The position numbers were made by a program, and so were the translations under genes. A stretch of 64,000 nt of DNA, from positions 12,326-76,325 of IMG/VR virus record IMGVR_UViG_3300045988_106833; one strand, given 5' to 3'. Under the pieces are notes generated by a model. It worked only from the letters and a program-made list of their open reading frames with translations. It was not told where the DNA came from and did no database searches. Below are positions 4,934 to 32,720 of this stretch, piece after piece (position 1 is the first letter of the stretch; the number at the start of each line of letters is the position of its first letter). Source of the stretch: a virus.

Positions 4934-7900
4934 TGGCTTCACAATATAGTATTTTAAGGCAATATGCCCCGTATGTTAGTCCTTACAACATAGATCTTGT
5001 TAAGGATGTCATGATGTACAAACAGCAGAAGGTTGATGCTGCTCGTGAAAAGATCTATACCCAGGTAGATTATCTTATGGGTCAAGAGATAGATAAGCCT
5101 GAAGCCCGTGCTTATATGGAAGATAAGATGTCAGGTGTGATTGCTAACATCAATCAAAAATTTAAAGGCGTGGATCTTTCTTCTGATGGTGTTACGAGAG
5201 CCATACAAGGAGAGATTAGTTCGGTGTTGGATGATACGGTCATTAACGCGATTGCCGGCACAAAAGAAGGCAAGAGGGTCATGAAGGAAATAGAATCTAT
5301 AAAACAGAATCATCCTGAACTTTATTCTCCTATTAATGAATGGCATGCTTTGGATCCTTATTACAAATGGAGGTCAGATGGTAAAGCAGGATCAAGGTTA
5401 GGGGGTCTTCATTATTCTCCTTATGTAGATTACACTAAGGAGATAAATAAGCTGGTTAGTGACTTTAGGAAAAATAACGAAGGCAAGAAGATTCAGACAA
5501 CAGAATATGATGTTAAAGGTAATCCTACTGGTGGTATTATAGAAGTTAATGTAGATGAACTTACAGATTCCCAGATAAGGAATTTTGTGTCTGCTAACTT
5601 ATCTGAAAACATGAGGAATCAGATGAGAATAGAAGCATCGTACATGGCAGCCACCAATCCGGTGTTCAGTAATCCGGATTTGGTTAGTCAATACATTGGG
5701 TCTTATGTCGAAAGATACGATAGACACATAGGAGCATTGGAAGCGAAAAAGAAATCAGTAGGTGATAATAAGAGTATTATTGATCGTATTGACAGTCAGA
5801 TACAGGAAGCTAAAAATCAGAAAGCAGAAGCCAAGAGGGAGGCAGATATGATAATAGCTTCGTCTGATCCGGTAGCGGCTGCTAATTTTGTTGTTACCAA
5901 TAATCTTTTCGATAAGATGACTGATGCATGGAGATACGACAATACAAGTTTTGAAAGGAAGAAAGATGATCTTTATTTTGCGAGGTTAGAAGAGGATAGG
6001 GCTCAGCAAAAGTTTTTGACTGACAATGCTAAGTCTATGGTTGAAATATCATTGGCAAAAGAGAAACTTGCTCAGGCTAAGATTGAAACCGAGTACATGC
6101 GCACTTACGGCTCCAAGATGGGAACTGAAAGCTCATCCGCAGGCGGCATGAGAGTGCCGATGGCTCCTATGGACGGGCCTACGGCCATTAACTCTGGCAC
6201 AGGTAAGACAGGATCTGTTAATTTGGCCAATATTCCTTACGAGTTACTTAAATCTCATTCTATAGATCGTAAAGCCAATTTATTGAAATTATATAACTCG
6301 TTATCTCCTACAGATAGAAGCAATATCGTTGCAGCATCATACGAAGAAGAAAAAACTGATCCAGGATTGTATGCTAATATGACTCCTGAAGAGCGGATAT
6401 ATTCTTATTTGAAAAACAATGGAGGTCAGAAAAACGGATATTTCGGACAAGGAAATAACAGATTGTCTGAAGCTTATGATGCTTTACTTCTTTCTGATTC
6501 TAAGGCAAATGGAGCCACAAAGGCTATAAATAACATAACTAATTATCAAATCGATAATATAGTTACTGAAAAAAATAAGGATATTATCAGGAAGGTTCGT
6601 AATGCTAAGTTTATGAAAGGAAATTCTTTTATAAATCTTACCGATACAGATGATAAGGCTGGAGCTTTCCTACTCGCCACGGCCATAACAACTGGCGTAT
6701 CTGATGCCGTAGGGTTTAGAGAGTACATGATGGATCCTTCAAGAGGAATAGATATTCTTAGTGCTATATCTCCGTCATTAGGAGCTAAGGCGAGTGCCGG
6801 TAAGTTGGGGAAAAACATATCTGATGCTATTACAGGCGAGGATAATGGTTCTTCTACTGGCACGTTGGCTCTTATTAATGGAATGAAGAAACTCAATGGT
6901 GATCCCGATTTTAATATATCCGATTATATGACTATAGATAAGGATGGTGATATAGATCTAAAAGATTATCAGGAAGGGGAGCCTTTGACTATTACTCAGT
7001 TAAGATATGCTGAGAAAAACAGTAGGGTGTCTGATATGATAGCAGGTCAGATGCAGGATGAGATAAAAATGTCTGTATCTCCCGATCAGATTTCTGATAA
7101 GTTATCTCAGTATCATTACCTTGATTCTTACAAAAGATACAATTGGAATGCCGATTCACCGGAAAAGTCTTTGCAGAAGGCTCAGTTTAGAAGATTGTCT
7201 GGTTACATGGCAGGAAAGGTAAATAATCTGGATCCTACTGCTATTAATGCCATTAATATGGATGCCGAGATAGATAATGGCACTGTTAGAAGATTCTTGA
7301 CTGCTCAAGTAGGTTCCGGTAAAAATTCTTATGTTACAGAAAGGGTAGAGATCACAAATGATGAGCTTCTTAAGGCAGGTATAGATCCTTCGGTTGAGGA
7401 GCGCAATTATCCGGTGGATGGTTACAAATCAAGTTTTGGAACCTGTGATTTTGTAGATACCGGAAAGAAGGAAGGCTATTCTTATGATAAGTATCTCATA
7501 CGTAATGGTCTTCCCCGTTTGGCTTCTAAGGCTGATGTTAAGAATGATCTTTATGATATAGTAAAGGTGCATGGTTCTTATCTTAAGCCTGAGGAAATGA
7601 ATGTTGTTAAAACCCTTGTTGATAATTTCATTGATATGTCTGACAACATATCAGTTCAGTTGGAAGGAATGGATGACAGGGGTTCGAGAGAGGTAGCGGT
7701 CAATTTCTATGATAAAAGGACTAAAAATTCTAAAAATCCTGCATTGTTGTTCTCGGATTTTGTTCCTTTGGATCCGGGTAATGATGAGTATGCGGATTAC
7801 TGGAATAACATTCACCAGAAGTGTCCTCAGTACTTCTTTGTAAAATACGTGAAGGAGGCTGTTCAAGAGCGTCTTGATCAGATGAGAGATCCGTATATGA

Positions 7901-10900: not shown

Positions 10901-13900
10901 GTAAGGCAGTCTATAATTGATAAACTATATACAGGTAATGCCGATCTTCTTACTGCGAGAGAAAAAGATGTGTATGATAAATACAAACAAGATTTTGATG
11001 ATTATGTATCGTCTTTGGGTGACAGTCCCGTTAATCTCATAAAATCATTATCTGAAAAGGCTGATAGGCTTACAAGTCCGAGATCTGTGTATGAGGATAA
11101 TAAAGCTATTATTGATATGGCTAAATCCAATTTAGAACCAGATCAAAGGAAGGAACTTGATGATGCTATTTCTTCGTATGTTGATATAATGAACAGACGG
11201 GATAAAGGGGAGAAGGTTGACGAAGATAAGCTTGCTGATTCGGTATTTACCATAGAAGATCTTGGTCAGGTTGGAAACATCACAGATCTCCTTCCTTATA
11301 TTGAACAAAACAGGATTATTGACAAAGGTCGTATTTCCGAATCTACGTTAAGTAATTTTGGAGAGGATGATGCTAATATAGATTCTCTTGTAAATGAATT
11401 AGACGAATCTGACAATACACCGGGAGCTAACATAGATAGCGTCCAGAATCCAGAGACGTTGATGGTAAGAAGAATCTCCAACGACGGCAATGAAAGGTAT
11501 GAAATTGCCGGTCTTAGAGCCGATAAATTTATATCTTCTATAAAATCATTGGTTCCTATTCAAATAAGCTCTGAAACGAACGCTAATGGAACTAAAAGGT
11601 ATTTCCTTAACATAGGTGGAGAAACGGCTACCGTGATAGAACTGCCTTATCATGCAAGATGGTCTATAGACAAAGAATCGGCTCGTGTTCTTAACCGTTA
11701 CACAGATGTGTCTATTCAGGACGTGGGTAATTCCTATTCTTTGGTTTATAAGCGTCTTGATTCAGATGAGTTGGTTCCGTACAGAACGGGTGTCGGATTC
11801 GGAGAGAATGAAGTAGATAAAATAGATCAGGAAGCATTATCTTCTTTGAAAAAAGGAGATAAGGTTAATCTCGAAATAGATGTAAATGATACCTATAATC
11901 AGTCTCTTTTTGCCGAATACAATGATGCTGTTCAGTCCGGCGATAAAAAAAGAATAGAATCTGCTGAGAATAAACTGGTGTCCAATATGGTTATCAAGGT
12001 CATGAGTGGGAACAGATTCGTTTCTGTTGTAAAAGCTGACACAGGGGGCATAGATGGTATAAGTAAAATAAGAAGAACGGCTTTTAACAAGTGGAAGAAA
12101 GATGCTGGTCGGTCGGCTACCATCAGCGTCGGCACGCATGTTGTTGCCCAGACTCTTCCCGGAAGACCGGTGTTTAACATGAAGGTAAACGGTCAAGGAT
12201 ATGGCCAGGTAGAAAATCTCCCTATTACCGAAAAAGGTGCTGAAAAAGTATCTGATGTAGGATATGTATTAAATGGCAAAGTCGTGCTTAAGAACGGATC
12301 TAAATACACAGGCTTCCCATTTGCTTATTCTATATTAAATGACAAGGGGAATAATTACAAAAATATAAGAGTTCCGGTAGTTGTTATCAAGGGTAAAAAC
12401 GGTCTTAATTATCTTTTCCCGGTTAGTCTACGTTCTGTAGAATCAGAGGAAGGAAAGAAATGGATTTCTTTTATAGATATGCTGCTTGAATCCAGTGGCT
12501 CTGAATTGTTACAGATGGGTCAAGATGATATACAAGATCTTAATGCGTATCTAACCAAGTTAGGTCTTGATCCGGCTTCGTATCAAGTATCGTACTTGAA
12601 TCCTATTTCAGGGCTTAGAAAAGCTCGTGAGGCTATAGAAAAATTATCTACGGTTCCTGATGTTGTTAAGTGGGTAGAAGATGGAAGTAGGAGCGTGAAA
12701 GACATTGTGACGTCTGAAGTAGAATCTGGAATAGATTTTGAAGGTGAGATGTTTGTTGCTCCTAAGATCAGGATCCAGTTTGGTAAATCATCTTCCAGAC
12801 CTAAATCACTTATAGAGGACGATCTTCCTTTCTCTGATGAGGGTAAAACCGTTACTTCTAAGGAAGACGTGGAAGTTTACGAAGAGGAAATGCCAGAGGA
12901 AGGGGTTGTCCGGGAGACTCAGCCGGCGCCACCGGCTCAACCGGCTCCTGCGGCACAAGCTACGCAGTCTTTACCTGGCAAGAAGCGTACCTCCAGGAAA
13001 AACTTCTCTCTTATGTTAAACGAAATAGAATCTCATATAGAAAAAGAAGGATTGCCGCCTTATGCTAATATTTTTGATTTTATAGCAAGGAAGATTGTAG
13101 GAGGTGACTTGAGGTTTCTTCGTGAGAGAGGTAATCCTAAAAGTCTTAAGGAGGAAATGGGATTAGAACCTAAAGGAACAGTAGGTGATAAGATATCCAC
13201 TCCTTCCAAGAAAGGTGGTAAGACTTTAGAAGAATACGTTTCTTGGCTTCGTTCTCAAACAGATCAGGTGGTGGTGGATTATGTTGGGCCAAGATCTGAT
13301 GAACAAATTATATCAGAGTTGAAAAACTTTTTGAAATATATTAATTTTGTTCCGAGTAAGGCTTTGAATTATTCTCTTAGAGTCAATGGCATGGACACCC
13401 TAAAGGAATATGGCACAAAAGAGGAAGTAGAAAAAATGGAATCTGATATCAATAGTTTGGTTTCTAAAGTTTTGCCTACGGTGGATAACCAAACTATAGA
13501 AGATGTTTCTACTGCAATAAAATCAAACAACTTGCCTGCTATATGGGAGCCCGTGGAAAGCCTTAATATGACAAATGAGGAAAAAATAGAGTTTTTGAAT
13601 AACATAGCGGATTTCCTTAGCGGCATACCAAGGTATGATGCTATTGTGGGGTCTATAGAGTCGGAATCAGATAATATTTTAAATGATGGAAAAGAAGGAA
13701 GTGCAGAAGGCGGTGCAGTACGCACTGAGGAGGATGGCGATAAAAAGGGAGATGGAGAAGGCAAAGGACAATCCAGAACAAATGTCGAAGTTAAAGGAAA
13801 TGTCGAATTACCTGGATCTGAAGAAGGAAGAGTAGATAACTATAGGAAGAACGGAGATAAGTTCTCTGACATTGCTGAAGTTACTTTATGGCTACTTAGA

Positions 13901-15170: not shown

Positions 15171-17426
15171 ATGGGTGTCAAATGTCAGATAGAAAAGAAG
15201 GAAAATAAAATAGAACGGGTTGAGGCTCCTAACGGTGAGCCTTCCGTTCTTTACGAAAGTGCCTTAAAATTATTAGGAAACAGCGAGCGAGCTCTTCAAG
15301 TATGGGCTAAGGCTTACACCTCTGATTTTTTGTCGTATTATGGTCATTGGAATAATCAGGCTCCAGGGGAGATGTTTAATACCGATCCCAATGGCGAACC
15401 TCTTTTAGAAGATGTGCTGTCGTATATGAAGCGTCAGGCTTATTTTTCCGATCCCTTAACGGCTCAGGATGTTAAGGATGTAAGAGATGTTATGATATCC
15501 AATTCCATATATAGCATACGATCTCTTATTAATAGAGTTAGAAGCTCTTTTTATGTGGATGGTAATCTTATCCTAAATGAAGAAAATCTAAGGAGATCCG
15601 GCTTGTACAATGAGACAGAGATAAGTAGGATATTAGATAATCCTTCTGTACTTAATGAGGTCAGCTCTTTTATGAGGTTATTATTAGACTATTCCAATAA
15701 CGAACACGATCTTGGGAAAGAGTTTTACTTCACAACCGTAGAAAAACCATACGGTCCTGTTGTGTATAAAAATGGCGTCTTCAATAAATTAGGAAAGAGA
15801 GCATCATATAATCCGGCTGAAGTTTACGAGGTTATAAAAAATACAGTAGGAGGTATTAGTGTTGCTTCAGAGTTTGATGCTGCTTTCGAATCTTTATCTG
15901 ATTCATATCCGGAGTTAGTTGAAAGATATCAGTCGGATAAGAGTTTTGCCTTGTCGCTGTTCAACGAATTTTCGAATATGAACATCGTTCCGGTTGTGGC
16001 TTTAGAAGATAATGATATCGCAGAAGGGAAGAGACGGTCATTATCAAAGTTGCAAGATTATGCTTATTACAGCCCTATTGGATCTGAGTCATTACGAGCT
16101 CGTATATCAGCCTTTCTAAACAGGGTTAATGCTGATACAGAAGAAGACCTTAGAAGTATGATATGGGACGTAGAAGAGGCTTGTGTAGGTCTTGGTATAG
16201 ATATCGTAGGCGTGTCTAAGGCATATGACGGAACAGAAGAATCGCTGAATAAAATTGATAGCTTGATGCTGGATCTTGATATTTATGTAGCAAGGCGCAA
16301 CGATGATACTTATGCTCCTACCTTAGCTTCTGCTATTGATGACGTTCTTGGAGATAGCAGGGATCGTCGTGTTATGTTTTTGCCAGAGTATATGGATAAT
16401 ATGAATATAGTTTATATGGAATCTGACATAGATCCGGTATCGGCATTTGAAAATCATTCTCTGCTTTATCTTGGTGGAAACCTATATCATAAGGTAGAAA
16501 GAGATAATTTAAGTGATTTGTACGATATGGCTGCTGAGCTTGCCAAGCAGAGTCTAACTTATTTTCCACCTGGCATCTATCCAGAATATTGTTTTAAAGA
16601 TGGTGTTTTAGATAAGCTCCGCGTGAAAAACGTAGATAGTAAGGCCCTTGCTGATTCTATTAAAAAATACGTCCTGTCTTATACCGATTCTCAGAATACG
16701 GAAGAGATGAATGCTACTAGATTGGCGTTCGGTCATCTTGTTATTCCTGGAAGCCCGTATGTTAATGAAGAACGGGAGTTTAGCCGATACATAAACAGAA
16801 AGCAGGACAAAGAGAATCCTTTACTCTTATTCGATTTATACCAATCTTATCTTGAAAATAAGCTTCATAATACGGAAGTGTACGAAGGAGCATACAAGTA
16901 TCTTGATTTCAAACCAGATCATTTGCTGGGTCTTACCGTTTCGGATCCGGATACGTTAAAACAAATTGAACTATCTTTGGCAGGTAATGATCGTGAGCAG
17001 TTATTTGAGTATAGCATGAGCAGTACCGATCCTTCTTTTACAGATCTGTTCTATTTGGATTATTATGATATGTTATATGCCGGTTCTGATTTCTATCACG
17101 ATCTTTTTACGAAACATCCGTATCTGTTAAATGAGGTTCGTAATCATAACATAACCGAACAGGATGGCAATGTTGTTGTTGAAGGTATGTATGATGGCTT
17201 TATCAGAATAAGAAATACGGTCTTCACTAAAATTGGCGAAAGTAGTTCCGGCTCTATCTACCAAAATCTGACAGGAACCGAATCGGAGGTGAAATACGAT
17301 TCTACTCAGAAGGCTAAGACGGTAGAAACCGATTACGCTCCATACCAAAACAGATCTGGCCTGACGCAAGATATGATCGTAAGCAAGTCTGAATTGGATG
17401 ATCTTAACAAATTAGAATGCAGGTAA
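15171..17426 (+). CDS. large protein (751 aa), unknown function
   Basis: Long ORF with its own promoter motif. Confidence 0.7.
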   Translation: MGVKCQIEKKENKIERVEAPNGEPSVLYESALKLLGNSERALQVWAKAYTSDFLSYYGHWNNQAPGEMFNTDPNGEPLLEDVLSYMKRQAYFSDPLTAQDVKDVRDVMISNSIYSIRSLINRVRSSFYVDGNLILNEENLRRSGLYNETEISRILDNPSVLNEVSSFMRLLLDYSNNEHDLGKEFYFTTVEKPYGPVVYKNGVFNKLGKRASYNPAEVYEVIKNTVGGISVASEFDAAFESLSDSYPELVERYQSDKSFALSLFNEFSNMNIVPVVALEDNDIAEGKRRSLSKLQDYAYYSPIGSESLRARISAFLNRVNADTEEDLRSMIWDVEEACVGLGIDIVGVSKAYDGTEESLNKIDSLMLDLDIYVARRNDDTYAPTLASAIDDVLGDSRDRRVMFLPEYMDNMNIVYMESDIDPVSAFENHSLLYLGGNLYHKVERDNLSDLYDMAAELAKQSLTYFPPGIYPEYCFKDGVLDKLRVKNVDSKALADSIKKYVLSYTDSQNTEEMNATRLAFGHLVIPGSPYVNEEREFSRYINRKQDKENPLLLFDLYQSYLENKLHNTEVYEGAYKYLDFKPDHLLGLTVSDPDTLKQIELSLAGNDREQLFEYSMSSTDPSFTDLFYLDYYDMLYAGSDFYHDLFTKHPYLLNEVRNHNITEQDGNVVVEGMYDGFIRIRNTVFTKIGESSSGSIYQNLTGTESEVKYDSTQKAKTVETDYAPYQNRSGLTQDMIVSKSELDDLNKLECR

Positions 17427-17468
17427 TTTTTGTACATATATATAGTTTTTTCATAGTTATAATTTGGG

Positions 17469-17498
17469 AAGTGAGGCTTGTGAAAGTCTCACTTTTCT
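17469..17498 (+). terminator. 7-bp stem hairpin (aagtgag/ctcactt) followed by ttctc...
   Basis: Inverted repeat 43 nt after the stop of the 751-aa gene. Confidence 0.3.
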
Positions 17499-17566
17499 CA
17501 TATATGTACGTATATCAATAACATACAAGAAAAGTTAGATTTTCATTGTTTATGAATTATTTTTAT

Positions 17567-17574
17567 TAAGTTTG
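17567..17574 (+). promoter_or_regulatory. -7 promoter motif TAagTTTG inside a 680-nt non-coding island
   Basis: TAnnTTTG match, upstream of the small ORF at 17649. Confidence 0.35.
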
Positions 17575-17648
17575 CAATATTAGTTTCAGGAAGGGATTAT
17601 GGAAATAAGGAAAAAGTAAGAACCGAACGTAACTAATAACAGTAGGAA

Positions 17649-17846
17649 ATGAGAATCAGTACCATCAAACGTAACAACAGCATTCATCTTATGTATAAAA
17701 ACATTATGAATGATTTAGGTCAATTAAGAACTGTAGTTTCAAAATCCTATATTTATAATCTGATACAAAATCAAACCGGATTAAGTATCAGAACTATATC
17801 CCATGTCTTGAATCACACAAAAGAACAGGATACAGATTCTTTGTGA
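17649..17846 (+). CDS. small putative helix-turn-helix DNA-binding protein (65 aa, or 51 aa from M15)
   Basis: The segment NLIQNQTGLSIRTISHVLNH resembles a classic HTH (compare the TISRVLN-type recognition helix). Sits between a promoter motif and a GC-rich hairpin. Confidence 0.4.
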   Translation: MRISTIKRNNSIHLMYKNIMNDLGQLRTVVSKSYIYNLIQNQTGLSIRTISHVLNHTKEQDTDSL

Positions 17847-17920
17847 AAAGCATACATTTTCATACATTTGTGTGTTCTTTAGTTTTTAGATTTAAGTTTT
17901 TCATGGTATTAGTTTAGAGA

Positions 17921-17956
17921 TCAGGGCTCGCAGTGATGCGGGCCCTGGTTTGATTT
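17921..17956 (+). terminator. GC-rich hairpin (cagggc...gccctg) followed by gtttgattt
   Basis: Read directly from the sequence. Confidence 0.35.
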
Positions 17957-18126
17957 AAAAAGTATTAAAATATTTGCTATTTAAAATCCTGTTCCTATCT
18001 TTGCTCCAGAAACAATGAACAACGAGATCCCACCTCTGGTTGTTTGATGTTGAAAGATATTTTTGGCTCATTAGGGTTTGTCATAGTGGGATCTGACATT
18101 CTCTTTTGGGCCTATTTTTTTTTATC

Positions 18127-19011
18127 ATGGATAAAGTTTCTGTTTTTGAAAGTTCGGATTTTGGAGAGCTTAGAATTATTGTAGATCCAAAAGGAGATGT
18201 TTGGTTTGTGGCGTCAGATGTGGCTAAATCTCTTGGATATATAAATGCTAAAGATGCGGTAAAAAGACATGTAGATGATGATGATTCTATGCTTTTGCAA
18301 GTATCTGATAATCAATGGGGCGTAAAACGATCTATATTGAAAACCAGATATATAGATAGTATAAGAATAATTAATGAATCTGGTTTATATTCTCTTATAT
18401 TATCTTCAAAATTAGAGTCTGCTAAGAGATTTAAGAAATGGGTAACATCTGAGGTTCTTCCTTCTATTCGTAAAACAGGAGAATATAAAACAAGTTCCGG
18501 TGGAAAGGGAATTTTGGTCCCTGACTTTTCTAATCCGGCAGATGCAGCAAGAGCCTGGGCTGATCAATATGAAGCTGCTCAAAAAGCTATAGCCGAAAAG
18601 TCGCAGGCAGAGGCAGAGAAGCAACAAGCTTTGAAAACAATAGAAGAACACAAGCCCGATGTAGAATTTGCCGAGTCTTTTAGGAAAGTAGACCATAACA
18701 ATATGTGGCTGATTCGTGATATTGCAAAGAAGTTAGAGCAAAATGGTGTTATTATTGCTGAAAAGAATCTTCGCTCATTCCTTGAAGAAGCTAAATTCAT
18801 GTTTAGGAACGGTCTTGGCAAATGGGAGCTATATAGCAATGTTGTAGTTAAAGGGTATGGAGTGTATAGGTCTTATTTCATAGATAAGTATTCTGGTGAT
18901 AGAATCAATCAACAAACCATATACATGACAGGCTCCGGATATGAAGTGACCTTAAATGGTATAAAAGGAAAACTCAAAAATGTGTTTCTAAAATATGGCA
19001 AGTTTGCTTAA
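18127..19011 (+). CDS. Bro-N domain protein (phage antirepressor-like), 295 aa from the ATG at 18127
   Basis: The N-terminal VFESSDFGELRIIVDPKGDVWFVASDVAKSLGY matches the Bro-N consensus. The ORF track started it at a TTG at 18106. Confidence 0.75.
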   Translation: MDKVSVFESSDFGELRIIVDPKGDVWFVASDVAKSLGYINAKDAVKRHVDDDDSMLLQVSDNQWGVKRSILKTRYIDSIRIINESGLYSLILSSKLESAKRFKKWVTSEVLPSIRKTGEYKTSSGGKGILVPDFSNPADAARAWADQYEAAQKAIAEKSQAEAEKQQALKTIEEHKPDVEFAESFRKVDHNNMWLIRDIAKKLEQNGVIIAEKNLRSFLEEAKFMFRNGLGKWELYSNVVVKGYGVYRSYFIDKYSGDRINQQTIYMTGSGYEVTLNGIKGKLKNVFLKYGKFA

Positions 19012-19186
19012 GTTTATTTACAGGTGGTGTTTTGAAAGAATAAAAAACACTACCTTTTTTGTTTCTGTTTTTGCTGAAAATATTTCTCTTCTATAAGAAA
19101 TAAACACACCTATATTCCACCTTACAATCATGAACTTTGTTACGTGCTTCATGCACGTATGTTTAACAATTAAATACTATAAAATT

Positions 19187-20194
19187 ATGGGTGGTGATAA
19201 AATCGTCCTTTTAGATGGAGCCGGGGCTAACGGTGGTGGTGCAGCCACTAACGGTCTTCTTTCAATGATTCCCGGCATGTTTGCTAATTTGATAGGTGGT
19301 AATAAAATGGATCCGAATCTGGTGGCGGCTTTGATGAACGGTCGTAACAACCAGGACGGTTTCGGTGGGGCTAACGGTTGGTGGCTCTGGATAATTGTTT
19401 TGTTCTGGCTGTGGGGTGGACGCGGCTTCGGTAACGGTTTTGGAAATGGCGGTGATTGTTGTGCCAATGGTTTGCCGGCTCAGTTGAATAACGATTACGG
19501 TCGTGAACTTTTGATGCAGGCAATTCAAGGTAATCGTAGCGCCATAGATCAGATTGCTTCTGCTTTGAACTGTTCTACTACTCAACTTCAAAACGCTATC
19601 TGCAACGTACAGGGTGCTATTGATAAAGTAGCTGGTCAGGTAGGTATGACTTCTCAGGCTGTTATCAACGCAGTTCAACAACAAGGTTGTGAAATAGGAA
19701 ATCAAATCAGCTCTTGCTGCTGCAATTTGAGTTCGTTGATCAATCAAAGCACTTGCCAGACTCAGGGAATGATTACTCAGCAAGGTTTTGATAACCAGCT
19801 TCGCACGTTGGAACAAACCAATATCTTGCAGAACGGTCTCAACCAAGGTCTGGCTAACAATCGTGAGCAAGCTACAAGCCAATTCAATATCTTGTCTGCG
19901 AAACTTGACGCCCAAACCGTTATGATCAACGACAAATTCTGTCAGTTGGAAATGAGGGAGATGCAGAACACTATTGCTCAACTTCGTGAAGAAAAAGCGG
20001 CTTTGACAGCTTCGGCATTATCTCAGCAACAAACCCAGAATATCGTTGGTCAATTACGCCCGACGGCCGTCCCGGCCTACCCCTCTTGTTCTCCTTACCA
20101 GGCTTATACTTGGGGACAGGTATTCGGAGGAGGTTGCTGTAATAACGGATGCGGATGTAACAACGGATGTTGCAATAACAACGCTGCTGTCTGA
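19187..20194 (+). CDS. Gly-rich / Trp-rich single-TM / Gln-rich coiled-coil / C-terminal Cys-cluster protein (335 aa from M20), unknown family
   Basis: N-terminal GAGANGGGAATNG and GFGNGFGNGG repeats. One hydrophobic helix GWWLWIIVLFWLWGG. C-terminus GGGCCNNGCGCNNGCCNNN. GC is about 48% against a window average of about 35%. Confidence 0.6.
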   Translation: MGGDKIVLLDGAGANGGGAATNGLLSMIPGMFANLIGGNKMDPNLVAALMNGRNNQDGFGGANGWWLWIIVLFWLWGGRGFGNGFGNGGDCCANGLPAQLNNDYGRELLMQAIQGNRSAIDQIASALNCSTTQLQNAICNVQGAIDKVAGQVGMTSQAVINAVQQQGCEIGNQISSCCCNLSSLINQSTCQTQGMITQQGFDNQLRTLEQTNILQNGLNQGLANNREQATSQFNILSAKLDAQTVMINDKFCQLEMREMQNTIAQLREEKAALTASALSQQQTQNIVGQLRPTAVPAYPSCSPYQAYTWGQVFGGGCCNNGCGCNNGCCNNNAAV

Positions 20195-20217
20195 TTTTAT
20201 TAAGAAAGGAGGCTAAT

Positions 20218-20631
20218 ATGGCTTGTGTTTCTAAAATAGGATCGTTGTATGAGATGGTTACGAAGAATGTTATTGTCAGTACGACAAATACAGTCTTCGG
20301 TATTAACCCACGGGCCTGGATCGCCCTTCCGTGTGAGGGTCTTATCCTTCTTAAGATAAGGCAAGTAGTCCCCACAGCCGGAAGTGCTCTACCGGTACAG
20401 ATTGCGGTCCCGGCAAACAGCACAGTTTCAACAGTAGGAGCCGACACCTGTTGCCCTGTTACGGGAGTGAATGTCGTGAACCCTATTAACGTAGCTGTCA
20501 CGGGTGCTGCTATGGTAAATGGCACAGAACGCCTTCTGTACTTCAATAAAGTTCGTGGCGTGTTAAGATTAATGGATTGTTGTGTTCCGACAACAACAGC
20601 CCAGGCGTCTGAAGTTAAAGCAGGTAAATGA
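20218..20631 (+). CDS. hypothetical protein (137 aa) with paired Cys (TCCPV, DCCVP), second gene of the GC-elevated cassette
   Basis: Strong SD AAGGAGG 8 nt upstream. Followed by a perfect intrinsic terminator. Confidence 0.6.
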   Translation: MACVSKIGSLYEMVTKNVIVSTTNTVFGINPRAWIALPCEGLILLKIRQVVPTAGSALPVQIAVPANSTVSTVGADTCCPVTGVNVVNPINVAVTGAAMVNGTERLLYFNKVRGVLRLMDCCVPTTTAQASEVKAGK

Positions 20632-20638
20632 TTTCAGT

Positions 20639-20666
20639 AGGGTGATGAAGATCATCACCCTATTTT
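20639..20666 (+). terminator. rho-independent terminator: 10-bp perfect stem (agggtgatga/tcatcaccct), 3-nt loop, then ATTTT
   Basis: Read directly. It lies 8 nt after the stop at 20631. Confidence 0.7.
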
Positions 20667-20681
20667 CACCTAACTAATATT

Positions 20682-20957
20682 TTGATCATGTTTTCAGATT
20701 TGAAGAAAGGGTTTCAGGTACATACCCTTGATACTAATACAGTACCTAAATACGAATTGGGAAAGGTAGTAGCCGTATCCGAACCCAGGTATCTTCCTCC
20801 TCAGCCAGGTCAGTATCAGGCGATGCAGACCCGCGTGGTGGATCTGACGGTAGAGCTCACTATCTATTTTTTTCAATACCAGGCCCGATGCGATTTTAAC
20901 GTATCGGGTTTTTATTTTAATTCATATTGTTTTATTTTAAATCTAATTAATTTATGA
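20682..20957 (+). CDS. hypothetical protein (91 aa)
   Basis: ORF track only. Confidence 0.3.
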   Translation: MIMFSDLKKGFQVHTLDTNTVPKYELGKVVAVSEPRYLPPQPGQYQAMQTRVVDLTVELTIYFFQYQARCDFNVSGFYFNSYCFILNLINL

Positions 20958-20963
20958 ATGTCG

Positions 20964-20971
20964 TACATTTG
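20964..20971 (+). promoter_or_regulatory. -7 promoter motif TAcaTTTG, 18 nt upstream of the ATG at 20989
   Basis: TAnnTTTG match. Confidence 0.4.
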
Positions 20972-20988
20972 TTGAAAAACTATTCTAT

Positions 20989-21216
20989 ATGGAAAATAAG
21001 GAAGATTACATTGGTTACGAAGATCAAGAACTGTGTAACCGGTATTACAAAGAGGCTGAAGCCATGAGGCAAAAGCAGGACTGGTCTCGGCTTAGGGCTG
21101 TCCCTGCTCCGGCCAAGGGAACGCCATCGCCCGGCTGGGGTCAGCTTGGACGTGGAAATGGTGTCCGTGTTAAGTATGTGAGTATCAATTCAGGATTGGG
21201 AGGAGATAGATTATGA
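20989..21216 (+). CDS. hypothetical protein (75 aa)
   Basis: ORF with a promoter motif. Its stop overlaps the next start. Confidence 0.5.
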   Translation: MENKEDYIGYEDQELCNRYYKEAEAMRQKQDWSRLRAVPAPAKGTPSPGWGQLGRGNGVRVKYVSINSGLGGDRL

Positions 21217-21431
21217 CCGTAGAAGAGTTAGTTAGTAAAAGATACGGTGGTGAATTTGTTTTCATGTTTGGTCATCTTGAAGGTAGAACAAGATTCGTTT
21301 TTGAATGCTTTGATCCCAGACCTGATCACGAAGGTAAAAACACTTATATGGTTTCCTATTTTGATAAGGGACTTCGTAGAAGAGATGTGGTAGAGGTACC
21401 GTGTTATATAAATATTTTGCCAAAATCATGA
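21213..21431 (+). CDS. hypothetical protein (72 aa)
   Basis: ATGA-coupled to the upstream ORF. Confidence 0.5.
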   Translation: MTVEELVSKRYGGEFVFMFGHLEGRTRFVFECFDPRPDHEGKNTYMVSYFDKGLRRRDVVEVPCYINILPKS

Positions 21432-21631
21432 AAATATTAATCTTAAATGTACCTGTATTTTCCGGTAAGATTGTTTCTCCTACATGGATTAAGGCCGTAA
21501 GAGATTTTCAATCCAGATCGAAGGCAGAAAGAGACTCGTATTGTTCGGTTTGTGGATGTACAGGAGGGTGTAACCTGTGCGATGATATAAGTAAGTATAG
21601 GATTTCAGAACAACTAAAATATTATATATAA
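21401..21631 (+). CDS. hypothetical Cys-containing protein (76 aa)
   Basis: ORF track. Contains CSVCGCTGGCNLC. Confidence 0.4.
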   Translation: MLYKYFAKIMKILILNVPVFSGKIVSPTWIKAVRDFQSRSKAERDSYCSVCGCTGGCNLCDDISKYRISEQLKYYI

Positions 21632-21632
21632 T

Positions 21633-22268
21633 ATGGTTAGAATCGCATATTTCGGAACCGATGGCTGCCCTGGTCATCACGTTATTCCAATACGAGGTAA
21701 ATTCACAGAAGAGGATATTAAGGTAATAGAATCTGTAGATTGTGATGATTTCTATAAGGTGTTTGATGTCATGCGTTTTAAGATAGCTGAGTTTAAAGGA
21801 TGGACGATATTAGGAATCCCGGCAAGCTTAGACGATCATAGACCTGGAAGCAAAACCGTTATCTTCATAGAGGGTAAAGCTAACGAAACTGACTTTATGG
21901 AAGTTATACAAGAGTATTCTTTTCTTAAAAATAAGGTAAAGAAACTTGCCGAATTGTATCATGATGGAGAATGGCTTGCGACTGGTAAATTGAATCAAGA
22001 TCCGCCTACTAACAAGGAGCGGTTTCAATTTACGTTAGACAAGGATGATATTATTAACATGATTAGGGGAGTCGATTTAGATCCTTATTCTGATGTGGCG
22101 AATGAAATGGAGAAAATCGGATTGGGATCATCATCTGATTCTTCATATGAGGGTCCCATATGGTCTTGGTTTGTTAACAAAGTAGAACTTTGGCAGAAGA
22201 ATAATGTATGGGATAGTTTCTCCGCTGAGTTTTTGTGGGGTTTGTATTGTAGGATAAAGAAAGTATAG
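21633..22268 (+). CDS. hypothetical protein (211 aa)
   Basis: ORF directly abutting the upstream stop. Confidence 0.55.
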   Translation: MVRIAYFGTDGCPGHHVIPIRGKFTEEDIKVIESVDCDDFYKVFDVMRFKIAEFKGWTILGIPASLDDHRPGSKTVIFIEGKANETDFMEVIQEYSFLKNKVKKLAELYHDGEWLATGKLNQDPPTNKERFQFTLDKDDIINMIRGVDLDPYSDVANEMEKIGLGSSSDSSYEGPIWSWFVNKVELWQKNNVWDSFSAEFLWGLYCRIKKV

Positions 22269-22291
22269 TAACAATTAATTTAAAACAAATC

Positions 22292-22423
22292 ATGGAATTA
22301 AAAGATTTTAAAGATGTGGTTAGAGTAATGACAAAAGAAGAGTTCGAATCAGCAATCAACGAAGATATTAAATTCGTTGAAAGATTTAAGCATTTTTTAA
22401 ACATGATGATGTTGCGAGGATAA
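22292..22423 (+). CDS. possible small protein (43 aa), not in the ORF track
   Basis: ATG-initiated frame MELKDFKDVVRVMTKEEFESAINEDIKFVERFKHFLNMMMLRG ending in TAA at 22421-22423. It fills an otherwise empty 170-nt gap. Confidence 0.25.
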   Translation: MELKDFKDVVRVMTKEEFESAINEDIKFVERFKHFLNMMMLRG

Positions 22424-22440
22424 TAGAACACGTAAAGTCA

Positions 22441-23166
22441 GTGTTAGAAGCATCAGTGGACTACTTCTATCCTAATCATCCTGAAGTAGAATTTGAAAAA
22501 GATTTTAATATACAATACGATGTCAATAATATCTTGAACAAATACGGCCACACCGAAATGGGTATGTATAAAATACAGCTCTATATAGAGAATATTTTGG
22601 GTAGTATTCAAAACAAGAAGCCTGTAGACGTGGGAGAAGTCTCTGACGGATACCACACTTTCAATGAATTGTATAGGTATCGCATGTTGTATAACGCTGC
22701 CTTCTTTAATCTATTAGCCAGAAGCGGACAGGTTGAAGTTTGCAAATCAAGGAGACACAGCGACGGAGAAAAATGCTTCGGTTCTGATGATTGGTTTATT
22801 GTGATGGCGATCCTACCTACCGGTCAGGTATCTAATCACTATGAAAGCAAATACTGGGATTTGTTTGATGTTCCTGAAAGAGAAACCGCTTTCGAATACG
22901 ATGGCCATACACCAAATGAAGCTGCCGACAGACTTGAAAAGTATCTCAAACTGCCTCGTCGTGGCATGACATTCGAACAGGCTTTAGAACAGCTTAAATT
23001 AGGTCGTAAGATAAAAAGAATCGATTGGGGTAAAAAGTATATCTGTATGTTTATTGTAGAATCTGACGTAAATATATTGATGGTAGATACAGGTCAAAAA
23101 GTAGCATCAAATTGGAATCCAACCGAACATGATATTATGTCGAATGATTGGGAGATTGCGGGATGA
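22441..23166 (+). CDS. hypothetical protein (241 aa); C-terminal segment resembles DUF2829-type phage proteins
   Basis: C-terminal MTFEQALEQLKLGRKIKRIDWGKKYI matches the F..A...LK.GKK..R..W pattern, recalled from memory. The track start is a GTG. Confidence 0.5.
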   Translation: MLEASVDYFYPNHPEVEFEKDFNIQYDVNNILNKYGHTEMGMYKIQLYIENILGSIQNKKPVDVGEVSDGYHTFNELYRYRMLYNAAFFNLLARSGQVEVCKSRRHSDGEKCFGSDDWFIVMAILPTGQVSNHYESKYWDLFDVPERETAFEYDGHTPNEAADRLEKYLKLPRRGMTFEQALEQLKLGRKIKRIDWGKKYICMFIVESDVNILMVDTGQKVASNWNPTEHDIMSNDWEIAG

Positions 23167-32609: not shown

Positions 32610-32675
32610 TAAAAGATATAAAAATAGTACTAAAATGTATTAGTATAAGATAAGACGGTTATTAATCATATATTA

Positions 32676-32720
32676 CAATAATCCCCAACCGTACACCTAT
32701 TGTATGGCCGGGGATTATTG
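32676..32720. terminator. 11-bp perfect inverted repeat (caataatcccc / ggggattattg) with a 23-nt structured loop, at the point where the plus and minus gene blocks converge
   Basis: Read directly. Its position between convergent operons suggests a bidirectional terminator. There is no clean U-tract. Confidence 0.4.

Follow-up and report, generated by a model that had tools for sequence, protein, structure and literature searches.

The window analysed here is a 64,000-nucleotide stretch of an IMG/VR virus record (IMGVR_UViG_3300045988_106833, positions 12,326 to 76,325) and belongs to an epsilon crAss-like phage with about 95% identity to crAssE-Sib (OR575929). On its late/structural strand, with giant structural genes on either side, two adjoining genes lie in a plastic accessory island that also holds genes for a Bro-N/KilAC antirepressor and a Tad2-like (PF11195) protein. 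Gene A occupies positions 19187 to 20194 on the + strand and encodes 335 amino acids; gene B follows at 20218 to 20631 on the same strand and encodes 137. No lysis gene adjoins them in the window or in crAssE-Sib, and a search did not identify those of the epsilon phage. Both genes had been proposed from the letters alone, and both are real and under strong purifying selection: dN is 0.10-0.20 in A and 0.12-0.34 in B, whereas dS is saturated. Estimates of dS were possible for A only, and where they were, dN/dS is ~0.03-0.05. The long antisense ORFs at the locus are taken to be by-products, as had been supposed, which fits the strong selection on the sense frame. The A reading frame on the + strand extends from 19130 to 20194 and gives 354 amino acids when counted from its first ATG, which is where the GenBank annotation starts it, overlapping the promoter-like motif GAACTTTGTTAC. 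The conserved start is instead the ATG at 19187.

From N- to C-terminus, A comprises a Gly-rich N-domain, a Trp-rich hydrophobic segment, a helical Gln/Asn-rich domain, and a tail rich in Pro, aromatic residues, and Cys. It contains 17 Cys and is 13% Gly, 12% Asn, and 11% Gln. The Gly/Asn repeats, Trp-rich segment, and C-terminal Cys cluster described in the sequence-only reading could all be located: GAGANGGGAATNG corresponds to residues 11-23, GFGNGFGNGG to residues 80-89, GWWLWIIVLFWLWGG to residues 64-78 (19376 to 19420, + strand), and GGGCCNNGCGCNNGCCNNN to residues 314-332 (20126 to 20182, + strand). The Gly-rich N-domain, with its conserved DPNLVAALM motif, places 63 conserved residues ahead of the Trp-rich segment, which keeps its position across all homologues. 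This segment, first described as a transmembrane helix and putatively membrane-active, is the best hydrophobic window of A on all scales, but its hydrophobic core is just 12-13 residues, which is borderline by Hessa (-1.2 for a 13-mer and +2.8 for a 19-mer) and very favourable on the Wimley-White scales (octanol, -17.5 kcal/mol). A single conserved Arg right after the segment weakly favours a cytoplasmic location for the C-domain. The helical domain, delimited at residues 101-290 (19487 to 20056, + strand) by AF2 secondary structure, invariant columns, and composition, is predicted to contain helices at 104-126, 131-150, 156-188, and 197-289. These come from a model built on a 27-sequence alignment with a very low confidence (pLDDT 41) and used for secondary structure only. 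An earlier description of this region as about 200 residues of heptad-like Gln-rich sequence holds for its length (190 residues) and, at that low confidence, for its helicity, but no significant continuous 3.5-residue periodicity was detected in it (p = 0.2-0.6). Conserved Cys of the domain lie at 129 (LNC), at 168 and 177-179 (C-x8-CCC), and at 252 (FCQLEMREMQ). The Cys-cluster tail is lineage-specific, being replaced by Gly/Tyr/Cys-rich tails in other lineages and missing from vir335. Two special roles considered for this end of the protein were rejected. A TOMM/microcin-like Cys/Gly core peptide is at odds with a tail that is unconserved, ends a 335-residue membrane protein, and has no modification enzymes nearby, and a C-terminal sorting signal would call for a transmembrane helix or basic cluster after the motif, neither of which is present.

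The A protein is widespread. Its exact 335-residue sequence occurs in at least 1000 contigs, a count that is a lower bound, and its family comprises between 3285 and more than 6364 cluster representatives. Searches of Pfam, NCBIfam, PADLOC, and the PDB matched A to no characterised family; the PADLOC matches are at most weak and of coiled-coil type (ZorA tail, E = 7e-4; LmuB, E = 1e-3; JetA, E = 0.045). A was said to have no recognisable family and perhaps to represent an undescribed class. The former does not hold, as A matches PHROG 16490 with E = 2.5e-43 (residues 37-328 against profile positions 6-284 of 286), and the latter was overstated, with the PHROG already catalogued and a 99.7%-identical protein (WOZ57306) deposited and named under OR575929. 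Relatives of A carry GenBank names such as "spike protein/glycoprotein" and "outer capsid protein/viral fiber" (e.g., WOZ57306 of crAssE-Sib, QOR59421 of cr116_1, and WLZ21182 of C3_41T2LP). Judged by family profile, these labels are unsupported: the PDB matches, to coronavirus S2 HR1 and other helical proteins, are insignificant (E = 0.02-0.65). A class I viral fusion glycoprotein was rejected on the same HR1 values and on the position of the membrane segment, which is N-proximal rather than C-terminal. Homology to a collagen-like tail fibre, named beforehand as the finding that would overturn the proposal, was also looked for in A; there is no Pfam Collagen or fibre domain, and the Gly-rich stretches lack G-X-Y triplets. 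The crAssE-Sib genome paper (PMC11054128) gave no match for "spike" or "glycoprotein," and its protein-analysis section is silent on these genes. Yutin 2021 does not mention the A or B genes, and literature searches on crAss-like phages and spanins, on DUF7841, and on the host strain of C3_41T2LP brought up nothing on the A family.

Gene B begins 5 nt after a Shine-Dalgarno-like AAGGAGG (20206 to 20212, + strand, read from the sequence), and its paired cysteines were correctly noted from the start: it has C3, C39, CC 78-79, and CC 121-122, with C3 and both CC pairs listed as conserved. B is a narrow family. Pfam, NCBIfam, and PADLOC place it in no characterised family, and a profile search of the PDB gave no match. 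Its N-terminus, MACVSKIGSLYEMVTKNV, is conserved across 28 homologues and has neither a hydrophobic signal peptide nor a lipobox; the best 19-residue hydropathy window is internal. The predicted structure (pLDDT 78) is a soluble beta-sandwich whose top matches are small uncharacterised gut-phage proteins, followed by the C-terminal domains of tail fibres of the collagen-like, T7-like, and tail-collar kinds (BFVD, E = 1e-3 to 1e-2, TMq 0.41-0.46). On this model, B weakly resembles phage tail-fibre tip domains.

Signals for an independent transcription unit surround the two genes. Upstream, an intrinsic terminator at 19022 to 19061 (+ strand; a 12-bp stem at 19022-19055, then TTTTTTG; -15.1 kcal/mol) lies 3' of the antirepressor gene and marks the boundary of the unit, and an equivalent hairpin with a T-run is found in L050, L088, L093, and L012. 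The motif GAACTTTGTTAC at 19132 to 19143 (+ strand) contains the TTTG of the Bacteroides -7 TAnnTTTG type, is the sole exact copy in the window, and is kept in an alignment of diverged upstream regions. In seven lineages, a TTTG lies 48-59 nt before the first gene of the unit, and we infer that this motif acts as a promoter. Downstream of B, a 13-bp hairpin at 20636 to 20664 (+ strand; -18.5 kcal/mol, z = -3.98) had been taken for the strongest intrinsic terminator in the window, closing the unit. It is followed by only four U, was not called by a terminator scan, and is exceeded in strength by terminator-like hairpins ending near 17949 and 32717. Since the same hairpin also sits between B and the next gene, C, in crAssE-Sib, it is an internal attenuator or stability element and not an end. 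A canonical intrinsic terminator is found at 20881 to 20921 (+ strand; a 12-bp stem with 6 GC pairs, then TTATTTTAAT; -17.2 kcal/mol). The GC content of the unit had been estimated at about 48% against about 35% elsewhere. The elevation is genuine, but measured values are 46.5% for the unit, 38.3% for the window mean, and 30-36% for the flanks, and the first two positions of the codons account for most of the excess, which thus reflects amino-acid composition. In each phage lineage examined, A exceeds its own background in GC. As the excess is mostly compositional, it does not in itself point to foreign origin.

Described at first as a two-gene unit, A and B are, from comparison with related genomes, the surviving front of a conserved accessory cassette of five to six genes, A-B-C-D-F, often trailed by a small HExxH protein, E. 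D is rich in Arg, Gly, Tyr, and Glu, and F is DUF7841. Of 80 related IMG/VR loci of the epsilon lineage, 77 preserve the whole of A-B-C-(D)-F. In the window, gene C (phrog_28898 family; 20682 to 20957, + strand) is truncated: its first ~60 codons, to ~20861, are homologous to the 164-residue C of crAssE-Sib, and the remainder is read-through into downstream sequence. The junction at 20861 to 20867 marks the loss of 1.43 kb relative to crAssE-Sib (blastn breakpoints 20861/20867, equal to 7675/9109 of L001), which takes two-thirds of C from its 3' end, D and F in their entirety, and two small ORFs. It also brought the 20881-20921 terminator, which closes the full cassette region in crAssE-Sib, beside the truncated C. 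The deletion is recent; it is found in 0 of the 80 related loci but is shared by 10 other contigs, with the identical 89-residue truncated C product (from the ATG at 20688) present in 10 contigs from several samples. Natural variants of the unit are frequent and include in-frame deletion fusions and IS605/TnpB and HNH insertions as well as this deletion lineage. All cassette members except E are non-enzymatic and Cys-rich, and none of B, C, D, and F bears an export signal. PDB phmmer searches with F and C returned nothing meaningful; the coiled coil of the C3_41T2LP C protein matches phrog_473 "virion structural protein" (E = 1.4e-8). The annotation of E in C3_41T2LP as a PolyVal-type metallopeptidase is unconfirmed, with no Pfam match and a weak SprT-like match instead.

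The cassette has carriers in at least three crAss-like groups, in a phage of Bacteroides uniformis, and among integrated prophages of Parabacteroides; the gene set is found in cr116_1, C3_41T2LP, cr1_1/cr52_1/L010, L012, Parabacteroides segnis, P. distasonis-type prophages, and L105. A Gram-positive host range was considered and rejected, as the Clostridium- and Roseburia-labelled MAGs carry crAss-sized or recoded phage contigs and are probably mis-binned; matches in Vibrio and Thauera come from 1-2 kb low-coverage contigs and are probably contamination. In unrelated phages, the cassette occupies differing genomic positions. In cr116_1, it lies between the L,D-carboxypeptidase (endolysin) gene and the scaffold/MCP genes, a site at which crAss001 has no cassette, and the second-position gene there encodes a protein unrelated to B (homology to B was undetectable for the second gene of vir335 as well). 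Suoliviridae have the order holin, Rz-like gene, F and D, A, B, and C, with an endolysin further on. In the P. segnis and P. distasonis prophages, a holin, an M15 endolysin, a spanin-like gene, and an HTH gene precede A to E, and the cassette ends the late operon, convergent with the early genes; in L105, A follows an M15 endolysin. The cassette stands away from lysis genes in the epsilon phages (the window and L012) and in C3_41T2LP. Its neighbours include a tail protein of phrog_5302 (L010 and vir335) and tail-fibre-like genes (L105 and P. segnis); a PHROG scan of the Parabacteroides prophage tail genes yielded no morphotype. In-frame TAG codons in A and C of cr52_1 and an in-frame TGA at a conserved Trp position in A of L105 place these genes in recoded late blocks. 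Several relatives also have a spanin candidate of their own: L010 encodes a separate 199-residue protein matching phrog_739 "Rz-like spanin" (E = 1.8e-4, with a weak TIGR03495 match as well), gp27 of crAss001 has the same architecture, and the P. segnis candidate is a unimolecular-spanin-like lipoprotein with a transmembrane segment at its C-terminus.

The explanation that we favour, and hold tentatively, casts the cassette as a late module working on the host envelope and tied to lysis or egress. Its transcription would start late, at a host-type promoter of its own. The short Trp-rich segment would anchor A in the cytoplasmic membrane, and A would oligomerise through its long helical Gln/Asn-rich domain, with the conserved Cys cross-linking that domain or loading it with metal. 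B, as a soluble beta-sandwich similar to a fibre tip, would bind either A or an envelope ligand, and the two proteins together with C, D, and F would act on the envelope at the end of infection in an auxiliary lysis/egress function. Because the partners lack export signals, they would have to reach the envelope via holin lesions, as canonical endolysins do. This explanation draws on the selection acting on the genes, on the conserved cassette with its transcription signals, on the late blocks that contain A in recoded relatives, on the membrane-active segment and helical domain of A, on the linkage of the cassette to lysis genes in four independent backbones (cr116_1, Suoliviridae, the Parabacteroides prophages, and L105) and on its movement among backbones of unrelated gene content in Bacteroidales-type hosts, which would fit lysis genes and usually not docked virion parts. 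Against it, there is no homology to any lysis protein, the relatives already have a holin, an endolysin, and a spanin candidate, so that no missing lysis step is evident, and the only structural resemblance of B is to tail-fibre domains. The distance from lysis genes in the epsilon phages and C3_41T2LP, the missing export signals of B, C, D, and F, and the very low confidence of the A model also count against it. The adjacency to lysis genes may also be positional rather than functional, since late-operon ends gather accessory genes anyway. A bolder form of the envelope explanation, which strikes us as unlikely, would make the cassette a novel Bacteroidales-specific machine for egress (or entry) unlike holin-endolysin-spanin lysis, with A as a fusogen-like or membrane-remodelling protein (a Gly-rich hydrophobic N-peptide, a Trp-rich interfacial or transmembrane segment, a Cys-knotted helical hairpin, and a tail of Cys and aromatic residues) and B as its receptor-binding-like cap. 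The original suggestion of an i-/o-spanin pair, in which A would span the periplasm from the inner membrane to B as a small Cys-containing outer-membrane partner, is largely refuted and has very little probability left. A does look bitopic, with a long helical domain, conserved Cys, and a Pro/aromatic-rich C-tail loosely like o-spanins in composition, and lysis genes adjoin it in four lineages. However, B begins with MACVSKIGSLYEMVTKNV and has no signal peptide or lipobox, the membrane segment of A starts at residue 64 behind a conserved domain, and A is unmatched to Rz/LysB models in the PHROGs lysis category, Pfam, and NCBIfam. Relatives have their own spanin candidates beside the holin, and in cr116_1 the would-be partner is swapped for an unrelated protein.

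The main rival of the envelope/lysis explanation is a dispensable fibre or decoration on the capsid or tail, which we regard as a real but somewhat doubtful possibility. A would form a helical stalk, B a knob joined to it via the Cys motifs, and C a second fibre (beta-domain plus coiled coil), the whole aiding adhesion to capsule, mucus, or host surface. The tail-fibre matches of the B model, the tail and tail-fibre-like neighbours in L010, vir335, L105, and P. segnis, the phrog_473 match of C, and the position of the window cassette on the structural strand amid giant structural genes all agree with such an appendage, as do the Cys-rich, non-enzymatic members, given that crAss001 virion proteins use disulfides (PMC10172136). 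It sits poorly with a segment in A, WWLWIIVLFWLW, that is among the most hydrophobic possible and ill-suited to a soluble external fibre, and with crAss001, whose virion has been fully mapped (PMC10172136) and which has no cassette. Transfer among unrelated backbones would also be unusual for parts that dock onto a capsid or tail, and the "fiber" and "spike" labels of A reflect insignificant similarity. Rather improbable is a role in superinfection exclusion or counter-defence, in which a membrane-bound A with cytoplasmic partners would block DNA entry by rival phages or neutralise an envelope-associated host defence. In its favour are the autonomy of the unit, which has terminators and a promoter-like element of host type; its place in the prophages, a classical moron position; the antirepressor and Tad2-like genes of the window island; and the frequent natural variants, which suggest fluctuating selection. 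The in-frame TAG and TGA codons of the recoded phages, however, mean that A and C cannot be made there before the late code switch, and factors for exclusion or anti-defence typically work early or from the prophage. A set of five to six proteins, most of them non-enzymatic, is unlike the known single-gene exclusion systems, PADLOC gives A nothing beyond weak coiled-coil matches and B none, and the cassette is kept in 77 of 80 close relatives. Still less probable is a set of packaged and ejected proteins, in which A from the virion would, on infection, insert its hydrophobic segment into the host membrane and form a Gln/Asn-lined helical conduit, much like phiX174 protein H or the T7 and crAss001 ejection proteins, with D (Arg/Gly-rich) and E (HExxH) as co-injected cargo. 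The architecture of A (Gly-rich hydrophobic N-region, membrane segment, and long Gln/Asn-rich helix in 335 residues) recalls the phiX174 H pilot protein, as well as the crAss001 cargo gp45 with its N-proximal transmembrane helix, and epsilon crassviruses have no detectable gp45 homologue in a group in which cargo sets vary (PMC10172136). The PolyVal annotation of E would suit a cargo protein but is itself unconfirmed. The hhalign probability of A against gp45 is 0.1, and no ejection protein of solved structure is related to A in sequence; Steigviridae with a gp45 of their own (cr116_1) carry the cassette too, the cassette crosses unrelated virion types, and an essential conduit would be neither accessory nor missing from crAss001.

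crAss-like phages are the most abundant human gut viruses, and the A family spans these phages and Parabacteroides prophages with members that are all unnamed or named on helical similarity that was insignificant in the PDB search. With A placed in a fixed, mobile cassette of five to six genes that has transcription signals of its own, the "spike" and "fiber" annotations are set right and the tempting spanin reading falls away. If the envelope/egress role is true, the cassette would add a component to the poorly understood phage lysis of Bacteroidales; if a virion role is true, it would be a horizontally mobile appendage. Cultured carriers exist in Bacteroides phage C3_41T2LP and in P. distasonis or P. 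segnis lysogens, and the deletion lineage of the window amounts to a natural experiment in which A and B are kept without C, D, and F.

Among catalogued families, A is a full-length member of PHROG 16490, a family uncharacterised in function. Two-component spanins (lambda Rz/Rz1, P2 LysB/LysC) share with the unit a membrane-anchored helical protein with conserved Cys, a small gene just downstream, and frequent proximity to holin and endolysin genes, but B is no lipoprotein, A has a 63-residue N-domain and twice the size of Rz, and neither has spanin homology. An i-spanin would have its transmembrane domain within about the first 25 residues and a periplasmic coiled coil after it (type II topology); the A segment lies at 64-78 with a core of 12-13 residues, and the A helices are low-confidence predictions. 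A spanin pair would be expected to supply the sole outer-membrane disruption of the phage from within the lysis cassette, and the relatives have separate candidates for that part. B is weakly similar to tail-fibre tips (Pseudomonas phage Pa193 gp47, PDB 9b45, and BFVD fibres; TMq 0.39-0.46, 9-16% identity), although it is a free-standing 137-residue protein rather than the end of a fibre and shares no sequence homology with them. Gln/Asn-rich helices are a feature of phiX174 protein H, and A has in common with this protein, the crAss001 cargo C1 (gp45), and podovirus ejection proteins a membrane helix near the N-terminus with long helical regions after it; unlike gp45 and the ejection proteins, to which it has no detectable homology, A is accessory and not core. 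The last comparison is with the Hendrix-type morons of temperate phages, the class to which the sequence-only reading had assigned the unit. The cassette differs from these in being multi-gene, in lying in the recoded late blocks of virulent crAss-like phages, and in a GC excess that is largely compositional. It is nevertheless moron-like in being autonomous and mobile, with a promoter-like element and terminators flanking the unit, a differing GC content, and a position that varies among otherwise syntenic genomes, as in its presence in cr116_1 and absence from crAss001.

What had been described from the sequence alone as a two-gene unit is a truncated copy of a larger cassette. In crAssE-Sib, an epsilon crAss-like phage (PMC11054128), three further genes lie downstream of A and B: C, a 164-aa protein (phrog_28898) with an N-terminal beta-rich domain and a coiled coil; D, a 125-aa Arg/Gly/Tyr/Glu low-complexity protein; and F, a 97-aa DUF7841 protein (PF25223, phrog_38431). 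In relatives, a small HExxH protein, E, often comes last. The crAssE-Sib genome (OR575929.1, 151 kb, human gut) matches positions 17000-23000 of the window at 95.4% identity over 84% of the length, and the window is 1.43 kb shorter, with 20861/20867 joining positions 7675 and 9109 of the crAssE-Sib locus L001. Of C, approximately 60 codons at the start survive this deletion, and D, F, and two small ORFs are lost. The deletion is present in none of 80 related IMG/VR loci: 77 carry A, B, C, and F intact, two others are truncated by contig ends, and one has a smaller C-F deletion. Nevertheless, the identical 89-aa truncated C product occurs on 10 other contigs from several samples, which indicates a real circulating lineage rather than an assembly error, and the A and B of this lineage are identical to those of intact lineages. 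Public assemblies also hold numerous fusions produced by in-frame deletion (A-F, B-F, A-B, F/D-B, antirepressor-A, and antirepressor-B) and IS605/TnpB or HNH insertions inside or beside the cassette, with one copy of A interrupted by an IS605 TnpB gene (fusion and insertion proteins from metagenome assemblies: P0003, P0161, P0230, P0004, P0079, P0361, P0437, P0444, P0446, P0447, P0453, P0455, and P0398). The fusions and insertions mark the locus as structurally plastic and a hotspot of structural variants, and despite this plasticity most genomes keep the cassette.

Carriers extend well beyond the close relatives of the window. They include the Steigviridae phage cr116_1, whose second-position gene had no detectable relatedness to B; C3_41T2LP, which is grown in culture on Bacteroides uniformis MB20-41; another epsilon-like lineage (L012); the chromosomes of Parabacteroides segnis, P. 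leei, and P. distasonis; a TGA-recoded phage contig binned as Roseburia (L105); and the Suoliviridae members cr1_1, cr52_1, and L010, in which a single 250-aa F-D fusion protein is encoded upstream of A. The E protein of the cr116_1 cassette has a weak match to phrog_1365. The same model is matched (E = 4e-11) by a 137-aa crAssE-Sib protein encoded outside the window at 74851-75264 (locus L004), directly upstream of a "tail lysozyme" gene, so an E-like gene in epsilon phages may sit apart from the cassette.

In the window, A and B lie on the + strand among small genes flanked by giant structural or cargo genes. Upstream is a 65-aa ORF that bears the label "lactose operon repressor" in the crAssE-Sib annotation, and directly upstream of A is a Bro-N plus KilAC (ANT) antirepressor gene (18106-19011) that holds the same position in only some close relatives, so that variability extends to the upstream side of A as well. 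Small ORFs follow downstream, and a further presence/absence polymorphism of the island is apparent at 21451-22260, where a segment of approximately 0.8 kb with a 211-aa ORF (21633-22268) is missing in crAssE-Sib and found in a subset of related loci. A 241-aa ORF 1.8 kb downstream of A/B (22441-23166; DUF2829 in the crAssE-Sib annotation) has precomputed Pfam matches to WDGH (PF25311) and Tad2-like (PF11195) and may be a counter-defence gene of the anti-Thoeris sponge type. An exact 15-nt direct repeat, TGTGTTTCTAAAATA, seen in crAssE-Sib and read in the window sequence, has one copy at the 3′ end of the antirepressor gene (18981-18995) and the other at codons 3-7 of B (20224-20238); it could reflect chance or serve as a substrate for recombination.

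Both ORFs of the unit are present as described, at 19130-20194 and 20218-20631. Homologues and the dominant protein cluster, which holds the exact sequence, place the start of A at the ATG at 19187, for 335 aa; the deposited 354-aa coding sequence (WOZ57306, OR575929) starts at the ATG at 19130, which overlaps a conserved promoter-like motif. All of the peptide motifs quoted for A were found (residues 11-23, 64-78, 80-89, and 314-332), and the protein has 17 cysteines. It gives a full-length match to PHROG 16490 (E = 2.5e-43), and its homologues fill 3285 cluster representatives with the window protein as query and more than 6364 with a Suoliviridae member as query. In deposited genomes, members of this family carry the names "spike protein/glycoprotein" or "outer capsid protein/viral fiber". 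When all solved structures were searched with a profile for A, the only returns were fragments of coronavirus S2 HR1, the dynein stalk, and apolipophorin, at E = 0.02-0.65, which indicates that these names reflect insignificant similarity between Gln/Asn-rich helices. Across homologues at 29-88% identity, the conserved elements are a DPxL-A-L/M motif, a Trp-rich hydrophobic segment with Gly-rich stretches on either side, AIxGN...LNC, C-x8-CCC, FCQLEMREMQ..I..LR, and PVPAY, followed by a variable Cys/Gly/Tyr/Asn tail whose CCNNGCGCNNGCC form is confined to the epsilon lineage. A and B are under strong purifying selection (dN of 0.10-0.20 for A and 0.12-0.34 for B, with dS saturated), and this fits the dismissal of the antisense ORFs as artefacts.

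Several compositional claims needed revision. The unit is richer in GC, but the figures are 46.5% against 38.3% for the window rather than 48% against 35%. Because the excess lies chiefly at codon positions 1 and 2 and A exceeds its background in GC content in each of the lineages examined, it stems largely from the Gly/Ala/Cys/Thr-rich proteins themselves. The Gln-rich region of A is indeed predicted to be helical, but its continuous heptad periodicity did not reach significance. The model of A (pLDDT 41) is usable for secondary structure alone, with predicted helices at 43-54, 65-77, 104-126, 131-150, 156-188, and 197-289 and disordered ends. Its hydrophobic core spans 12-13 residues; over 19 residues the segment scores +2.8 kcal/mol on the Hessa scale here and approximately 0 in P. 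segnis, making translocon insertion borderline, and it is extremely favourable on Wimley-White scales. All homologues have one Arg after the segment, and in most the N-flank contains at most one basic residue, a pattern that weakly favours a cytoplasmic C-domain.

B belongs to a narrow family: a word-indexed search yielded 139 matches, and exhaustive searching with a profile yielded 121 clusters at the 50% identity level. Its paired cysteines (CC at 78-79 and 121-122) were confirmed, with Cys positions invariant in the family, as was the AAGGAGG 5 nt upstream of its ATG. No match to B was found in Pfam, PHROG, or PDB. The model is an eight-strand beta-sandwich (pLDDT 78, pTM 0.71) for which the top Foldseek match in the PDB has E = 0.45; in BFVD, uncharacterised small proteins of gut phages score best (E = 1e-7 to 1e-4), and C-terminal fibre domains of the collagen-like, T7-type, and tail-collar kinds rank next (E = 1e-3 to 1e-2). 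The predicted fold's likeness to fibre tips is weak, though it recurs.

A canonical terminator (19022-19061) follows the antirepressor gene. Beyond it, the motif GAACTTTGTTAC (19132-19143), unique in the window, is conserved amid otherwise diverged upstream regions. In seven lineages the first cassette gene is preceded, at a distance of 48-59 nt, by a TTTG, which in two cases belongs to a perfect TAnnTTTG, the form of the Bacteroides -7 promoter element; the element is a putative promoter. The hairpin after B, previously ranked as the strongest terminator in the window, is strong (-18.5 kcal/mol, z = -4), but it has only four U and is exceeded by two + strand hairpins; a canonical terminator lies downstream of it at 20881-20921. 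The two stronger terminator-like hairpins are at 17905-17949 and 32673-32717 (-24.1 and -20.1 kcal/mol), the latter at the switch from a + strand block to a - strand block. Recoding bears on timing. In cr52_1 (L006 4776-6757), in-frame TAG codons occur in A (two) and C (seven), and likewise in the surrounding tail and lysis genes, and in L105 (8001-8900) an in-frame TGA in A coincides exactly with a conserved Trp of its homologues. Such recoding marks late genes in code-switching crAss-like phages (PMC10136315), and late expression of the cassette is predicted in these recoded relatives.

The sequence-only reading had likened A and B to an i-/o-spanin pair. B has neither signal peptide nor lipobox, A matches no Rz/LysB model, the cassette is wholly absent from crAss001, and relatives own spanin candidates. 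In L010, the gene that follows the holin encodes a 199-aa protein with weak matches to phrog_739 ("Rz-like spanin") and TIGR03495, and crAss001 gp27 has the same TM-plus-coiled-coil design. The P. segnis prophage (L098 6099-7383) has a complete-looking lysis cassette of a PF05105 holin, an M15 endolysin (Peptidase_M15_3), and a 134-aa protein that has no match among Pfam or PHROG models; with its N-terminus of lipoprotein type (…VVAMSSC) and its TM helix at the C-terminus, this protein has the predicted architecture of a unimolecular spanin. We therefore reject A and B as the spanin pair of these phages, a role that is now extremely improbable.

In P. segnis these lysis genes are followed directly by an HTH gene and then A to E, and the cassette adjoins lysis genes in four of approximately eight independent contexts (cr116_1, Suoliviridae, Parabacteroides prophages, and L105); it lies away from them in the two epsilon lineages, C3_41T2LP, and the further carrier vir335. 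The phage backbones between which it moves have Bacteroidales-type hosts in common but are unrelated in gene content, and it consists of one membrane protein and partners without export signals. From lysis adjacency, this mobility, late recoding, and this make-up we infer, tentatively, a late module aimed at the host envelope and possibly linked to lysis or egress. A would be its membrane anchor, and the soluble partners might reach the envelope via holin lesions, like canonical endolysins. A dispensable virion fibre or decoration is only slightly less probable than this reading: the fold of B, the tail-gene neighbours, and the match of C to phrog_473 favour it, and the extreme hydrophobicity of A and the cassette's mobility across backbones speak against it. 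The island context and many natural variants would suit an exclusion or counter-defence accessory; late recoding speaks against that role, which seems quite unlikely, and proteins packaged in or ejected from the virion are less probable still.

The prevalence of the cassette in dominant human gut phages and the existence of cultured carriers give it importance, as does the fact that current annotations of A are built on a helical similarity that is not significant in a PDB search. As a sequence family A is not new, for it is already catalogued and a near-identical copy has been deposited. Membership tests against named systems gave no match of A, B, or the cassette to any characterised system. 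That the cassette is a new kind of envelope machine is doubtful, and we rate it as a late accessory or lysis-associated phage module.
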